64,000 nt of DNA from Actinomycetota bacterium (lineage in GTDB: Bacteria; Actinomycetota; AC-67). The stretch is from contig JBBDRM010000085.1 of the NCBI GenBank assembly GCA_040905475.1, forward strand, positions 3,959-67,958. Reading direction: 5' to 3'. The notes beneath the pieces are model-generated. The model saw only the letters and a program-made list of their open reading frames with translations. It was not told where the DNA came from and ran no database searches. Made by a program: the position numbers and the translations under genes. Shown here piece after piece: positions 18,342 through 64,000 of this stretch (position 1 is the stretch's first letter; the number at the start of each line of letters is the position of its first letter).

Positions 18342-19559
18342 ATGAGCGGGCCCATCGTCATCGTCGGAGCGAGCCTCACCGGAGGCACCGCTGCCGCAAC
18401 GCTCCGAGAGCAAGGTTTCGACGGTCCCCTCTATCTCATCGGCGCCGAGCCGCGGGCGCCGTACGAGCGGCCGCCGCTCTCGAAGGAGTATCTCCGCGGC
18501 GAGAAGCCCTTCGAGAAGTCCCTCGTGCGGCCGGCCGAGTGGTGGGAAGCCAACGGCGTCGAGACCCGCTTCGGCGCGACCGTCGAACGGGTCGACACCG
18601 CCGCTCGCGAGGTCGTCCTCGTCGGCGGCGAACGGATCGGCTACGACAAGGTTCTGATCGCCACCGGTGTTCGCAACCGGAAGCTCGATGCTCCGGGGGT
18701 CGAGCTGGAAGGCGTGCACTCGCTGCGAACCGTCGAGGACTCCGACCGGATGCGGGCCGACGCCGAACGCGCGAAGCGGGCCGTGGTCGTCGGGATGGGG
18801 TTCATCGGCGCCGAAGTGGCGGCGTCACTCCGCACCCTCGGCCTGGATGTGACGGCGGTCGAGCCGACCCCGACGCCGCTCCATCGCGTTCTCGGCTCCG
18901 AGGTCGGAGGCGCCATCGGCGCGTTGCACGCGGATCACGGTGTGCACATGCGTTTCGAGGACACCGTCGTAGCTCTGGAGGGCTCGACCCGGGTTGAGAC
19001 GGCCGTCACCAAGTCCGGCGCACGGCTCCCGTGCGACATCGTCGTCGTCGGCGTCGGCGTCGAGCCGGTCACCGATCCGGTCGCCGGCACCGACATCGAG
19101 CTGGACAACGGCATCGCCGTCGACGAGCGCTGCCGCACGAACGTCGAGGGCGTCTACGCGGCCGGCGACATCGCGAATCACTTCCACCCGCTGTACGGCC
19201 GCCGCATGCGCGTGGAGCACTGGCAGAACGCCATGCGCCACGGCGCGCACGCCGCGAAAAGCATGCTGGGATCCGAGGAGCCGTACGTCGAGGTGCACTG
19301 GTTCTGGTCCGATCAGTACGACGCCAACATCCAGTACGCCGGCCACCACCGCGAATGGGACTCGCTCGTGATCCGAGGCTCGATCCCCGACCGTTCCTTC
19401 CTGGCCTTCTACGTCAAGGACGGCCTCGTCGACGGGATCGCCGCGCTCAACCGCGGCAAGGAGCTGCGCCGCGCGATGGGGATCATCAGGGCCCGGAAGG
19501 CGGTCGAGGAGTCCGCGCTCCGCGACGAGTCCGTCGACCTCAAGACCCTCGGCGCGTAA
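18342..19559 (+). CDS. FAD-dependent NAD(P)H ferredoxin/rubredoxin reductase-like oxidoreductase.
   Basis: GASLTGG and VVVGMGFIGAEVA dinucleotide-binding motifs. Putidaredoxin-reductase-like architecture. Confidence 0.8.
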   Translation: MSGPIVIVGASLTGGTAAATLREQGFDGPLYLIGAEPRAPYERPPLSKEYLRGEKPFEKSLVRPAEWWEANGVETRFGATVERVDTAAREVVLVGGERIGYDKVLIATGVRNRKLDAPGVELEGVHSLRTVEDSDRMRADAERAKRAVVVGMGFIGAEVAASLRTLGLDVTAVEPTPTPLHRVLGSEVGGAIGALHADHGVHMRFEDTVVALEGSTRVETAVTKSGARLPCDIVVVGVGVEPVTDPVAGTDIELDNGIAVDERCRTNVEGVYAAGDIANHFHPLYGRRMRVEHWQNAMRHGAHAAKSMLGSEEPYVEVHWFWSDQYDANIQYAGHHREWDSLVIRGSIPDRSFLAFYVKDGLVDGIAALNRGKELRRAMGIIRARKAVEESALRDESVDLKTLGA

Positions 19560-21987: not shown

Positions 21988-22063
21988 TCCGGGGTGGCGC
22001 AATTGGCAGCGCGGCGGACTGTTAATCCGTAGGTTGCGGGTTCGAGTCCCGCCCCCGGAGCCA
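21988..22063 (+). tRNA. tRNA-Asn (anticodon GTT).
   Basis: Hand-folded cloverleaf. Acceptor stem TCCGGGG/CCCCGGA. D-arm GCGC-AATTGGCA-GCGC. Anticodon loop CTGTTAA. T-arm GCGGG-TTCGAGT-CCCGC. Discriminator G followed by an encoded CCA. Confidence 0.75.
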
Positions 22064-59644: not shown

Positions 59645-60901
59645 CTAGCAGGCGGCCGCGCGCCCCAGCAGCAGCGCGCGCTCGCGGACGTTGAGGGTGA
59701 GCGACGCGGCGCGCTCGAACTCCGCGCGAGCTTCGTCGAAACGGCCGAGCTTGGCCAGGAGGTCACCGCGAACGCTCGGCAAGAGGTGGTAGCCCTTCAG
59801 AGCCGGCTCCTCGGTCAGCGCGTCCACGACCTCGAGGCCCGCCGCAGGACCGAACGCCATCCCAACCGCCACCGCGCGATTCAGCTCGACGACCGGCGAC
59901 GGCGTGATCTGAGCAAGCGCTGCGTAGAGCGCCGCTATCCGGGGCCAGTCCGTCTCCTCGGGAGTGCGCGCTCTCGCGTGACACGCCGCGATCGCCGCCT
60001 GCAGCGCGTACGGACCGCTCGCGCCGCCGAGTTCCTCGGCGCGGTCGAGCGCCGCGAGACCGCGACGGATGAGGAGCTGATCCCAGCGCGCACGGTCTTG
60101 ATCGAGCAATAAGATCGGCTCTCCCGCCGGCCCGGTGCGCGCCCGCAAACGCGACGCTTGGATCTCCATCAGGGCGACGAGGCCGTGCACCTCCGGTTCC
60201 TTCGATGCCAGCCCGGCCAGGATCCGGCCGAGACGAAGAGCGTCCTCGCAGAGCGCCGGCCGCACCCAGTCCTCGCCTGCGGTCGCCGAGTAGCCCTCGT
60301 TGAAGATGAGGTAGACAACCTCGAGCACCGACGAAAGGCGGGGTGCTAGCTCGTCGCCGCTCGGGACCTCGAACGGGACGTGCTCGTCGGCGAGGGTCCG
60401 CTTGGCGCGAACGATCCGCTGCGCGACCGTCGGCTCAGGAACCAGGAACGCCCGCGCGATCTCCTCGGTCGTCAGACCGCCGAGCAACCGGAGCGTGAGC
60501 GCGACACGCGCTTCCGTGGAGAGCACCGGATGGCATGCGGTGAACACCAGCCGGAGGAGGTCGTCACCGATGTCGTCGTCGATCGCGGCGTCGAGGTCCG
60601 CCTCGCCCGTCTCCTGCCGGATAGCGATCTCGTTACCGAGCTCCTCGCGTTTCCGTTCGAGGCGCTCGTTGCGGCGGAACAGGTCGATCGCACGGTGCTT
60701 CGCGGTGGCCATGAGCCATGCTCCAGGGTTGTCCGGGATCCCCGACTCCGGCCAGCGCTCGAGCGCCGCGACGAGCGCGTCCTGCGCGAGATCCTCGGCG
60801 ACGCCGACGTCGCGGACCATGCGTGCGAGGCCGGCGATGAGCTTGGCGGACTCGATCCGCCAGACCGCATCGATGGCACGACGTGGATCGGGAGCCGTCA
60901 C
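59645..60901 (-). CDS. ECF42-like sigma factor with a C-terminal TPR-like extension.
   Basis: Sigma regions 2 and 4, plus an extension of about 200 aa. It is encoded downstream of two DGPF/YciI-like genes, the context described for group ECF42. Confidence 0.7.
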   Translation of the reverse strand: MTAPDPRRAIDAVWRIESAKLIAGLARMVRDVGVAEDLAQDALVAALERWPESGIPDNPGAWLMATAKHRAIDLFRRNERLERKREELGNEIAIRQETGEADLDAAIDDDIGDDLLRLVFTACHPVLSTEARVALTLRLLGGLTTEEIARAFLVPEPTVAQRIVRAKRTLADEHVPFEVPSGDELAPRLSSVLEVVYLIFNEGYSATAGEDWVRPALCEDALRLGRILAGLASKEPEVHGLVALMEIQASRLRARTGPAGEPILLLDQDRARWDQLLIRRGLAALDRAEELGGASGPYALQAAIAACHARARTPEETDWPRIAALYAALAQITPSPVVELNRAVAVGMAFGPAAGLEVVDALTEEPALKGYHLLPSVRGDLLAKLGRFDEARAEFERAASLTLNVRERALLLGRAAAC

Positions 60902-60955
60902 GGCTCCCGATCACACCATCTCCGATCAGCCGGAGCAAAGCCGGCGCGTTTGTGG

Positions 60956-61393
60956 CTACCGCTGTGTGACTTTGCTCTGCAGCTCGTCGCGAAGGGCCTG
61001 CTCGCGCGCGGCCGCCTCGGCCGGGAACACGTCCTCGGGGAAGTCGTTCGCTTCGAACAGCGGGCGGATCTCGGACTCACCCTCGCCGATCGCTGCGGCG
61101 AAGCGCTCGCTCCACTTCAGGCACACCTCCCAGGACGGGAAGTCGGCGAGGACATACCCGGCGATCAGTTCCTTCGTCTCGGTGAACGGGCCGTCGATCA
61201 CCTTGACGATCTTCCCGCCGGAGATCTTCAGGCGCTTGCCTTCAGAGCTCGGCTTGAGCCCGTCCGCAAGGATCAGGTGGCCCGCCTTGGCCATATCCTC
61301 CATGAGCTCACCCATCGCCGCGTACTCTTCCGGCTTCCCCAGGACCCCCGCCTCGGAGTCCTCCGTCGCCTTGACCATCATCAGGAATCGCAT
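60956..61393 (-). CDS. YciI-like (DGPF-motif) protein.
   Basis: MRFLMMVKA...VIDGPFTETKELIAGYVL. Confidence 0.7.
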   Translation of the reverse strand: MRFLMMVKATEDSEAGVLGKPEEYAAMGELMEDMAKAGHLILADGLKPSSEGKRLKISGGKIVKVIDGPFTETKELIAGYVLADFPSWEVCLKWSERFAAAIGEGESEIRPLFEANDFPEDVFPAEAAAREQALRDELQSKVTQR

Positions 61394-61424
61394 CGTCTTC
61401 TCCCTTGGGTTCGAGTTGGCCGCT

Positions 61425-61853
61425 TCAGCGCTGTGTGCTCTCCGTCAACTTCCGTACGCGCTCCTCTTGTTCCCGAAGTTCGGGCGTGAGTACCTCGCCG
61501 AAGTCGTCCGCCTCGAATACCTGGCGGATCTCGATCTCAGACTCACCGGGCATGGGGTTGGGGGCGCGCTTCACCCATTCGATCGCCTCTTCCTTCGACT
61601 TCACCTCGAAGATCCAGAAGCCGGCAACCAGTTCCTTCGTCTCGGAGAAGGGCCCGTCGATCACGGTGCGCTTGTCGCCGGAGAACCTGACGCGGGCGCC
61701 TTTGGAGCTCGGCTGGAGTCCTTCGCCCGCGAGCATCACGCCGGCCTTGGCCAGCTCTTCGTTGTATTTGCCCATCGCGGCAAGGAGCTCCTCGCTGGGG
61801 AGAACGCCGGCCTCGGAGTCCTTTTCTGCCTTGACCATGACCATGAATCGCAT
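61425..61853 (-). CDS. YciI-like (DGPF-motif) protein, tandem paralogue.
   Basis: MRFMVMVKA...VIDGPFSETKELVAGFWI. Confidence 0.7.
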   Translation of the reverse strand: MRFMVMVKAEKDSEAGVLPSEELLAAMGKYNEELAKAGVMLAGEGLQPSSKGARVRFSGDKRTVIDGPFSETKELVAGFWIFEVKSKEEAIEWVKRAPNPMPGESEIEIRQVFEADDFGEVLTPELREQEERVRKLTESTQR

Positions 61854-61993: not shown

Positions 61994-62881
61994 CTAGTCT
62001 CCGATCGCGATCTCTTGGCGCCAGGTCGGGATCTCGTAGCCGAGCAGCTCGAAGAGCCGCTGGTTGTGCTCGGCGTAGCGGTTGTAGAGAAGCTTCCGAG
62101 CTCCTGCCGTCTCCTCCGCATGCACGCGAACGCCAGAGTACGTAAGCGGTCCGTCGAACGCCTGGATGCCGAGGAACCGACAGATCTCGTCGAGCGCACG
62201 GGTCGTGTGTTCAGTGGCGTCCTCGCCGGTCAGCTGACCTTCGAGCCGGCTCTCGCGCAAGCTCCCGCGGTCGATCGTGGCAGCGCTCGCGTCGGTCACG
62301 CTGATCAGCACCCGGTCGCGTGGGAAGTACGGTCGGATGTTCTCGCGGAGGTGCTTGGCGTAGAAGCCGCGGTCGAGCATGCGGCGGCCGCGAAGTGGGT
62401 CGCCGAGGATGTGCTTGCGCACGTAGTCCTCGTCTATCCGGTCGGCGACCGGGAGGGTGCCGCTCCGCATCCGGTGGTTGATCTCCGACAGCAGCCGCGC
62501 TACCGGCTCGCGGAGGAGCACGATGATCTTGGCGTTCGGAAGGACCCGATGGAGTCGGCGCATGAAGCGGTTCGTGCGCATGTACTCCGGGGTCTTCTCG
62601 CCGCAAATCTTCCCGGCCCCGTCCCGGAAGTGCGCGCGGTACCAGTCCAAGCCCTCGTGCCAGTGCTCGTTGAAGAACCGCACCTCGCGCCGAGGCATGA
62701 AGATCCTGGGATGCTGCTTTAGGTTCCCGGCGAGCGAGGTTGTCCCCGCCTTCGACGCACCCACGATCACGAAATCTGGGAGCGGGCCCGCCGCGGCGGA
62801 GCCCATAGGGGGACGGACGTCGCTCAGGCGATTGCGAACCTCGCGAACCACCTCCGCTCTCGTAGAGCGGAGGATACTCAC
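61994..62881 (-). CDS. PAPS-dependent sulfotransferase-family protein.
   Basis: GTG start. 5'-PSB loop VIVGASKAGTTSL. 3'-PB region REPVARLLS. Confidence 0.65.
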   Translation of the reverse strand: MSILRSTRAEVVREVRNRLSDVRPPMGSAAAGPLPDFVIVGASKAGTTSLAGNLKQHPRIFMPRREVRFFNEHWHEGLDWYRAHFRDGAGKICGEKTPEYMRTNRFMRRLHRVLPNAKIIVLLREPVARLLSEINHRMRSGTLPVADRIDEDYVRKHILGDPLRGRRMLDRGFYAKHLRENIRPYFPRDRVLISVTDASAATIDRGSLRESRLEGQLTGEDATEHTTRALDEICRFLGIQAFDGPLTYSGVRVHAEETAGARKLLYNRYAEHNQRLFELLGYEIPTWRQEIAIGD

Positions 62882-62917
62882 GACGCCGGCGAATGATACT
62901 GCGGCGCCGAGGCCATC

Positions 62918-62940
62918 TAACGACCCTGCGGCTCATCGGC
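62918..62940. repeat. Left copy of the 23-bp direct repeat TAACGACCCTGCGGCTCATCGGC.
   Basis: Identical copy at 63663..63685. The pair brackets the higBA module. Confidence 0.6.
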
Positions 62941-63005
62941 CGCGATAACCGCGAAGCGGGGACGCGGTCCGTTCCAGCCGCGCGTTATGCCGCGTTGCGC
63001 CATCA

Positions 63006-63296
63006 TTAGACCGTCAAGGATTCTCTGACTGCATCGGGATGTGTGGCGGCGACGCGGAGCAGAGCCCGGGCAGGGCCTTCGGGACGCCGGCGGCCCTGTT
63101 CCCAGTTCTGGAGCGTCGCGACGCTCACGCCGATCATGAAGGCGAACTCGGGCTGGGATAACCCGAGTCGAGTCCGGATCTTCCGCACTTGAGCGGGTCG
63201 AAACTCGAACCGCCGCGACGGAGCCTTCACGCCGCGCCGAATCTTTCCAGCCTCCCGGACGCTCGCGATCAGTTCCTCGAATTCGTTCGCCTTCAC
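63006..63296 (-). CDS. higA: HigA-like HTH (XRE-family) antitoxin.
   Basis: HTH LGLSQPEFAFMIGVSVATLQNWEQGRR. It lies downstream of the toxin gene, which is HigBA order. Confidence 0.7.
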   Translation of the reverse strand: MKANEFEELIASVREAGKIRRGVKAPSRRFEFRPAQVRKIRTRLGLSQPEFAFMIGVSVATLQNWEQGRRRPEGPARALLRVAATHPDAVRESLTV

Positions 63297-63610
63297 TTCA
63301 GTTCCTCCCGGACAACACGCCCCAACGTCTTGATCTGCGCTGCTGTGAGGTCATCCTGTCGCGTCTTCTCGAACAGGTAGATCATGTACAACCGATCTGC
63401 GGCTCGATCCCAGTAGTACAGAACGCGAAGGCTCCCACGCTTTCCCCGGCCGGGCTGATTCCAACGCACCTTCCGTAGTCCACCAGCCCCTCGGATCACC
63501 GCTCCCTGATCCGGCCGAAGGACCAGCGCTAGTTGGAGCCGCCGGATCTCCTCATCAGGAAGAAGAGAGCAGATGAGCCTTGTGAAGATGGAGGTTTCAA
63601 CGACAACCAC
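63293..63610 (-). CDS. higB: HigB/RelE-ParE-superfamily toxin.
   Basis: GTG start. ...LRVLYYWDRAADRLYMIYLFEKT... is typical of HigB-like killer proteins. ATGA-type overlap with higA. Confidence 0.7.
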   Translation of the reverse strand: MVVVETSIFTRLICSLLPDEEIRRLQLALVLRPDQGAVIRGAGGLRKVRWNQPGRGKRGSLRVLYYWDRAADRLYMIYLFEKTRQDDLTAAQIKTLGRVVREELK

Positions 63611-63617
63611 AAGTTAC

Positions 63618-63636
63618 TATACGCCATTGGCGTATA
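63618..63636. promoter_or_regulatory. Perfect 19-bp palindrome TATACGCCA-T-TGGCGTATA (candidate higBA operator).
   Basis: Seen directly, 8 nt upstream of the higB start. Confidence 0.5.
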
Positions 63637-63662
63637 GTGGTCAAGACCGAATGCCAGGGGCT

Positions 63663-63685
63663 TAACGACCCTGCGGCTCATCGGC
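63663..63685. repeat. Right copy of the 23-bp direct repeat TAACGACCCTGCGGCTCATCGGC.
   Basis: Identical to 62918..62940. Confidence 0.6.
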
Positions 63686-63779
63686 GCCGAGCCGCACTTG
63701 CGCGGCCGATGTCCGTTAGCAGCCGCGAGTTAACTCGTCCGAACTAATGGCTCGATCAACCGGAGTCACCACCGGGCTT

Positions 63780-63820
<41 letters not shown>

Positions 63821-64000
63821 CTACCGGAGTGGTCGCATTTCGAGAACGTACCGCCGACGGGTAGGACTAGCAAGGTTGGCCCGCTTCAGTGCTTAGGAAT
63901 CGCTGACGCGCCGCGGTGTGCGAGGCGCGCCTGTGCGCACTCGCATAACACCGGGAGCATCAGAAGCACCGACGCGCCGACGCCCCAGAGGCGAACTCGG

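Follow-up and report, generated by a model that had tools for sequence, protein, structure and literature searches.

Known attC sites, the recombination sites of integron cassettes, measure between 57 and 141 bp. The HigBA-2 toxin–antitoxin (TA) module of Vibrio cholerae is itself a cassette of a sedentary chromosomal integron, the superintegron of this organism with its V. cholerae repeats (VCR). TA cassettes that carry their own promoters are typical of chromosomal integrons (PMC8618304), in which they are enriched and kill cells on excessive excision (PMC13108822). In the canonical attC site, extrahelical bases on the L'' arm together with an unpaired central spacer confer bottom-strand selectivity (PMC5027507), and an inverted-integrase layout, with the integrase gene intI and the cassettes on one strand, is recognised by IntegronFinder (PMC13323075). 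In surveys of complete genomes, Actinobacteria had no complete integron (PMC4889954, PMC9024848), and the virtual absence of integrons from this group was still noted in a recent study of metagenome-assembled genomes (MAGs) (PMC13323075), while reviews place Actinobacteria among the phyla with integron components (PMC8618304). The present analysis concerns a higBA module within a 64-kb stretch of an Actinomycetota genome (contig JBBDRM010000085.1, positions 3,959 to 67,958), hereafter called the window. We conclude with high confidence that the two repeats flanking this module are attC sites of an integron cassette array, of which higBA is one cassette. Cassettes of this kind are familiar, and the one unusual point is the uncultured Actinomycetota host.

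A first inspection of the window, the sequence-only reading, had pointed to a 23-bp direct repeat around higBA, attributed either to the insertion of a small mobile TA cassette or to the attL and attR of a minimal integrative element. The repeat, TAACGACCCTGCGGCTCATCGGC, is indeed present in two exact copies on the plus strand, at 62918-62940 and 63663-63685, spaced by 745 bp and enclosing only higBA and its promoter. No further copy with up to three mismatches occurs in the 64-kb window, and none of 100 shuffled sequences contained a match. A 19-nt match to the right repeat at 18435-18453 was set aside as fortuitous; it lies within a coding region, in the GxGxxG motif of a flavoprotein-like open reading frame (ORF). 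Alignment of the two regions (62915-62990 and 63660-63735) revealed that their likeness spans about 76 bp and that a diverged middle is followed by a second conserved block, GTCCGTT..CAGCCGCG.GTTA. The units have the potential to form a hairpin, and their ends, which read ..TAAC and GTTA.., recall the inverse-core and core sites of integron attC. An Rfam scan of the window assigned the repeats to no family, its sole match being a tRNA gene at 21988-22060 (RF00005, 70.9 bits).

The repeat turned out to belong to a family that is widespread at unrelated loci, the very outcome that the sequence-only reading had named as counting against it. A scan with a two-block pattern, using one genome per species, found matches on six contigs, which come from Actinomycetota MAGs, one MAG labelled Trueperaceae and one unclassified MAG; among them L006 (contigs are designated here by our own numbers) holds seven exact copies in 6.1 kb and L004 three. 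The 22-mer core was also found in 27 metagenome contigs of the Joint Genome Institute (JGI), often with several copies per 1-5 kb contig. A covariance model trained on 16 copies then retrieved 94 copies from 38 sources. Several copies are present in 24 of these sources, and in each of the 24 they all share one orientation, with a spacing of 313-1390 bp (median 599 bp); across the arrays there is one repeat per small ORF. In 37 of the 49 informative cassettes, the array strand carries the longest ORF. On L006 every plausible ORF is on one strand and stops a few nucleotides before a repeat, as is likewise the case on L004, L011 and L013. L006 (1-6116) consists of nothing but cassettes, about ten in number and rich in TA modules; by eye we recognised a ParE/RelE-like pair, two HicAB-like pairs and DUF433/DUF5615-like genes, as well as SnoaL-like and DUF4160/DUF2442-like genes. 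The Trueperaceae label of this contig rests on the binning of 6 kb of cassettes and cannot carry a claim that the family crosses phyla.

The terminal triplets of the family are nearly invariant: AAC is found in 89-92 and GTT in 92-94 of the 94 copies, and the R' consensus reads GTT-R-N-R-Y. Both R' sites in the window, GTTAGAT and GTTAAGC, fit GTTRRRY exactly, and the two R'' sites, GCATAAC and AGTTAAC, each deviate once from RYYYAAC. Between these ends the copies share a hairpin in which 95.1% of cells are paired, a percentage that is optimistic because the large alignment was fitted to the covariance model, and in which 18 of 27 pairs show compensatory changes. These compensatory counts were already present in an independent MAFFT alignment. 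None of 500 shuffles reached the observed values, and controls in which the structure was slid along the alignment gave only 26-42% pairing.

The cassette junctions provide a further signature. For the 50 units bounded by two detected sites, we compared the six bases preceding AAC (R'') with the six bases following GTT (R'). On average, the R'' of a given site is complementary at 5.16 of 6 positions to the R' of the site before it and at 3.64 of 6 to the R' of its own site. In 38 of the 50 units the site before gives the better match, and in 5 the worse one, which marks the cassette junctions at the G/TT crossover. For the higBA cassette of the window the values are 4 of 6 with the preceding R' and 2 of 6 with its own. 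Such a shift of complementarity by one unit is expected if the units are excised and inserted by crossover between G and TT, and is a hallmark of integron cassettes. Against this background, the reading of the 23-bp repeats as a target-site duplication, or as the attL and attR of a minimal self-mobile TA element, appears extremely improbable. It would account for two perfect direct repeats around nothing but higBA and its promoter. But the similarity actually extends over 76 bp with a diverged and covarying centre, which is unlike a recent duplication; this sequence is also found beside dozens of unrelated ORFs on other contigs, and the 745 bp encode neither a recombinase nor a transposase. 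Moreover, neighbouring cassettes at the orthologous locus share the same flanks: where the sequence-only reading had suggested looking in related genomes for an uninterrupted single copy, L004 carries cassettes that are all different from those of the window, between the same kind of repeats.

The family is also directly linked to integron integrases. L005, a contig from an Actinomycetota MAG, contains a 371-aa ORF that matches the integron integrase family TIGR02249 with 436.8 bits (cut-off 265) and aligns from end to end with V. cholerae VchIntIA (2A3V, E 5e-82), including the integron-specific segment. The motif GTTATACGG occurs on the same strand 35 nt after the intI stop codon, followed by one small ORF and then an attC site whose R'', CCGTATAAC, is the exact complement of GTTATACGG. 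On L013, a 53-kb contig from forest soil, the genes cinA-pgsA-ftsK-dapA-thyX-intI are followed by eight co-oriented attC sites. The order thyX-dapA-ftsK-pgsA-cinA is typical of Actinobacteria, which supports the MAG labels. In both contigs a putative attI can be placed between the intI stop codon and the first GTTATACGG crossover (L005 781-835 on the minus strand, about 35 nt; L013 11198-11555). Since the cassettes and intI point in the same direction, any promoter serving the cassettes would need to be located within intI or upstream of it. The NCBI annotation already lists an "integron integrase" in several Actinomycetota MAGs.

A structured 76-bp family that is arranged in co-oriented arrays next to integron integrases identifies the repeats as attC sites rather than as an insertion duplication or attL and attR. 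The repeats are attC in at least 38 sources, and the corresponding recombinase, IntI, would act in trans and is not part of the module. The minimal integrative element has to be given up. What survives of the original proposal is that higBA is a mobile cassette whose repeats are site-specific recombination sites. We also considered whether the repeats could be generic intergenic palindromes, resembling repetitive extragenic palindromes (REP), bacterial interspersed mosaic elements (BIME) or miniature inverted-repeat transposable elements (MITE), or else terminator hairpins. They are GC-rich hairpins located just after stop codons and may also act as transcriptional barriers. This explanation is nevertheless very unlikely: the 64-kb window has just two copies, which both lie where the array ends, the family follows a strict tandem order of one co-oriented copy per ORF, with AAC and GTT termini and a junction complementarity shifted by one cassette, and it directly adjoins integron integrases in L005 and L013. 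No T-tract terminators were found.

Having identified the repeats as attC sites, we could define the cassette boundaries in the window. The orientation of the ORFs in the arrays implies that the ORF-sense strand is the attC top strand and corresponds to the minus strand of the window. The opposite assignment, with the plus strand as the top strand and higBA reversed in its array, was dropped in view of the ORF orientation on L006, L004 and L013 and the intI-proximal junction on L005. The upstream attC (63660..63735, minus strand) reads R'' AGTTAAC ... R' GTTAAGC, scores 77.2 bits with the covariance model (E 3e-20) and contains the right 23-mer; its crossover point lies between G 63666 and T 63665. 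The downstream attC, which is higBA's own (62915..62990, minus strand), reads R'' GCATAAC ... R' GTTAGAT, scores 83.4 bits and contains the left 23-mer. It starts 15 nt past the higA stop codon, forms one hairpin with TAACG/CGTTA at its base, whichever strand is folded, and is the last detectable attC of the array. The higBA cassette thus covers 745 bp (62921..63665, minus strand), from the TT of the upstream R' to the G of the R' in its own attC, and its inward-facing ends, GTTAAGCC and GGCATAAC, complement each other. The right attC is preceded on the array strand by the 3' part of the penultimate cassette (63736..64000, minus strand), which is cut by the window end; this segment shows no likeness to IntI, and one of its frames ends, some 150 nt ahead of the attC, in a C-terminus that is short and hydrophobic.

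The repeat also explains an antisense ORF that had been noticed to start within its left copy. The ORF exists (62211..62936), but it is a spurious high-GC ORF whose start is an ATG belonging to the family. This ATG is carried by 64 of the 94 copies, as ATGAGCCGC; it belongs to the conserved 3' block, which on the array strand reads GCCGATGAGCCGCAGGGTCGTT (columns 116-118 of the family alignment). On the array strand it opens an ORF beginning 'MSRRVV...' that runs over the crossover point into the next cassette, and in the window the ATG in the repeat block gives rise to spurious ORFs starting at 62936 and 63681. Of eight ORFs taken from among the longest in the window, seven have no Pfam match and are probably spurious high-GC ORFs as well.

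To the optimistic pairing percentage mentioned above must be added several points that weigh against our identification of the repeats or against its extension to the host. The 64-kb window contains neither intI nor attI and only two attC sites, which, taken by itself and strictly, makes it a cluster of attC sites lacking an integrase (CALIN). The right attC (63660..63735) has a one-base insertion and central changes relative to the family and forms no single clean hairpin. Between the R and L boxes, the unpaired spacer is markedly asymmetric, with GACCCT (6 nt) on the 5' arm of the bottom strand versus GA or GC (2 nt) on the 3' arm (62921-62934 and 62972-62985 in the window), and this asymmetry lies on the arm opposite the canonical extrahelical bases (PMC5027507). 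A single extra base is found on the '' arm, in the next internal loop. Strand choice and activity can thus not be assumed, and the family possibly uses a different strand selection, as judged from the position of the spacer. On the top strand, AACTC can pair instead with GGGT. Lastly, the taxonomic labels of the contigs come from MAG binning.

The missing integrase raises the question whether the part of the array seen in the window is a CALIN, either a relic or one at a secondary site, with decaying attC sites and a higBA module that has effectively become a fixed chromosomal TA locus. This would be a variant of the integron explanation and not an alternative to the attC identity of the repeats, and we regard it as a minority possibility of some weight. 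CALINs are common (PMC4889954). By tblastn, IntI, ThyX, DapA, FtsK and the distal genes of L013 had no match in the window, which thus lacks any IntI-like sequence as well as the thyX/dapA/ftsK genes that mark the intI locus in L005 and L013; among the 120 best IntI homologues, none is located on the source contig of the window. Its two sites, at 83 and 77 bits, are also the lowest-scoring among the near-consensus copies (the others reach about 100), and the right one has the inserted base and misfolds. On the other hand, the window stops 265 bp beyond the right attC, so that a proximal array would simply be out of sight; no fewer than four good sites are present at this locus in the related L004, and close IntI homologues exist in several Actinomycetota MAGs.

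The higBA cassette recurs in four other upstream contexts (L007, L008, L011 and L041). HigB is 90% identical on L007, where an attC of the same family lies 12 nt past higA. On L008 it is 87% identical and the cassette follows one encoding an ABM domain, and on L041 the protein belongs to the same 90% cluster as the HigB of the window and is preceded by two unrelated cassettes. The fourth copy (85%) is part of a 10-kb array with more divergent sites on L011. In a multiple alignment, homology begins right after the upstream GTT, and the sequences next to it are unrelated; in L007, where the downstream end can be seen, homology ends with the downstream attC. When the central-region types of the flanking sites are compared, both the upstream and the downstream sites differ between contigs, and the comparison is therefore uninformative as to whether the attC travels with its ORF. 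More distant higBA homologues (72%; L009, L010) lie outside arrays, which indicates that this TA family is not restricted to integrons. The higB homologue of L011 (7033-7272) has a CTG in place of the GTG start codon and is called as a 79-aa product; the toxin may have been truncated at its N-terminus or inactivated, whereas the antitoxin beside it is intact.

The two genes of the cassette are arranged with the toxin first. higB (63293..63610, minus strand) encodes a 105-aa HigB-2-like toxin of the RelE/ParE family (Pfam PF06296, 29.3 bits) that matches the structures of V. cholerae HigB-2 (5JA8/5JA9) over residues 2-96 with an E value of 2e-18 and is 100% identical to MEX2555807.1 from an Actinomycetota MAG. 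higA (63006..63296, minus strand) encodes a 96-aa helix-turn-helix (HTH) antitoxin with matches to HTH_3 and MqsA_antitoxin; it belongs to the NadS family NF041265 (66.7 bits, cut-off 60) and matches the HigA-2 structures 9TV9/5JAA with E values of 6e-9 to 1e-8. The GTG start codon of higA overlaps the higB stop codon by 4 nt (GTGA), and higA has a GGGAGGA motif.

Within the cassette, a sigma-70-type promoter, TTGACC-17 nt-TATAGT (63616..63644, minus strand), agrees with the consensus at 10 of 12 positions. It is the sole promoter-like site in 62800-64000 and is conserved in the higBA cassettes of L007, L008, L011 and L041. The GTG of higB lies 5 nt past the -10 box and has no Shine–Dalgarno sequence, from which we infer that the higB-higA mRNA is probably leaderless. 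The 19-bp palindrome that had been noted just upstream of higB, TATACGCCATTGGCGTATA, was located at 63618-63636, where it covers the spacer of the promoter plus four bases at the start of the -10 box and stops 7 nt upstream of the GTG start codon (63610). It has a 9+1+9 form, TATACGCCA-N-TGGCGTATA, and matches the minus strand with one central mismatch. Five homologous cassettes share the half-sites TACGCC/GGCGTA but vary in the 3 nt at the centre, a pattern that fits an operator for a dimeric HTH protein. From its overlap with the -10 box and the conservation of its half-sites, the earlier suggestion that the palindrome is an operator is plausible; it would be bound by HigA or HigBA and serve autoregulation of higBA.

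We propose the following sequence of events. The 745-bp unit comprises TTAAGCC, the promoter with its putative operator, higB, higA and the 76-bp attC ending in G. IntI, acting in trans, would excise this unit as a circle by attC x attC recombination and re-insert it at attI. Unlike most cassettes, this one carries its own promoter, from which it would be expressed, and the HTH antitoxin, alone or together with the toxin, would repress transcription at the palindrome over the -10 box. Cells losing the cassette would be killed or arrested by the HigB-2-like mRNase, so that the array would be stabilised and excessive excision penalised, as in the V. cholerae superintegron. By this analogy, array stabilisation is the most likely role of the higBA cassette.

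At its distal side the array meets conserved chromosome. It enters the window from beyond 64000 and ends either near 62915 or at the sulfotransferase gene that follows (61994..62881, minus strand; Pfam Sulfotransfer_1/3). This gene is co-oriented with the cassettes and starts 40 nt after the last attC crossover; no attC was found downstream of it with the covariance model with filters off, nor was an AAC...GTT hairpin seen by eye in 61993-61850. Three arrays share this configuration: after the last detectable attC there follows, within 11-45 nt, a co-oriented gene or segment without an attC of its own, which differs between related genomes (the sulfotransferase gene at 61994-62881 in the window, a glyoxalase gene at 15030-15482 in L013 and a 68-aa ORF at 2800-3360 in L004). 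Left of the array, the chromosome is conserved between the window and L004, with two YCII genes and a gene for an extracytoplasmic function (ECF) sigma factor, on the minus strand in the window; identity over this flank of about 3 kb amounts to 86.5%. Synteny with L004 begins only near the sulfotransferase stop codon (~61993); in place of the sulfotransferase gene, L004 has about 560 bp of unrelated sequence. The conserved flank corresponds to 59645-61853 of the window and 3503-5720 of L004, and its ECF sigma factor has a DUF6596/TPR C-terminal part. At least four good attC sites were detected by the covariance model at the orthologous locus of L004 before this contig ends. The YCII-YCII-ECF-sigma flank marks a fixed chromosomal site for the array end in two Actinomycetota MAGs.

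In a broader perspective, a TA module with direct repeats is explained here by a textbook mechanism and need not be chased as a new mobile element. A coherent attC family, whose sites are recovered by the covariance model, is present in several soil MAGs and metagenome contigs and is linked to bona fide intI genes within actinobacterial core synteny. Taken together, the data suggest an uncultured soil Actinomycetota lineage with native sedentary chromosomal integrons, characterised by a co-oriented intI beside thyX in the ftsK-dapA-thyX core region, homogeneous 76-bp attC sites with the spacer asymmetry on the non-canonical arm, and TA-rich arrays, the window representing, at the YCII-YCII-ECF-sigma locus, either the far end of one such array or else a second array; we consider this proposal evenly balanced between being right and being wrong. 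With this family one can ask if integrons function in high-GC Gram-positive hosts and in what way, in particular with respect to leaderless cassette expression and attC folding at 67-70% GC.

Among known systems, sedentary chromosomal integrons such as the V. cholerae superintegron with its VCR provide the closest parallel. Common features are homogeneous sites of about 76 bp with an imperfect hairpin and AAC/GTT ends, a conserved R/L region with a variable terminal structure, one site per short ORF in a common orientation with G/TT junctions, and, in related contigs, an IntI with the integron-specific segment adjoining the array. Unlike these integrons, the present ones would reside in uncultured soil Actinomycetota (according to the MAG labels), have intI on the cassette strand and a spacer of 6 versus 2 nt on the non-canonical arm, and form short arrays of up to about 10 sites instead of hundreds. 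An intI on the same strand as the attC sites and cassette ORFs, with the array directly downstream (L005, L013), is shared with the inverted-integrase integrons of the Treponema denticola type described for IntegronFinder 2.0, which differ in phylum and attC family. With two or more attC sites but no intI within reach, the window resembles a CALIN, but it is cut 265 bp past the second site. The module itself resembles V. cholerae HigBA-2 in having the toxin gene first, a toxin with the RelE/ParE fold, an antitoxin with a C-terminal HTH and a cassette with its own promoter. In contrast, the proteins encoded in the window are only distantly related to HigBA-2 in sequence, the antitoxin is also NadS/MqsA-like, the mRNA is apparently leaderless, and the putative operator has a sequence specific to this cassette family.

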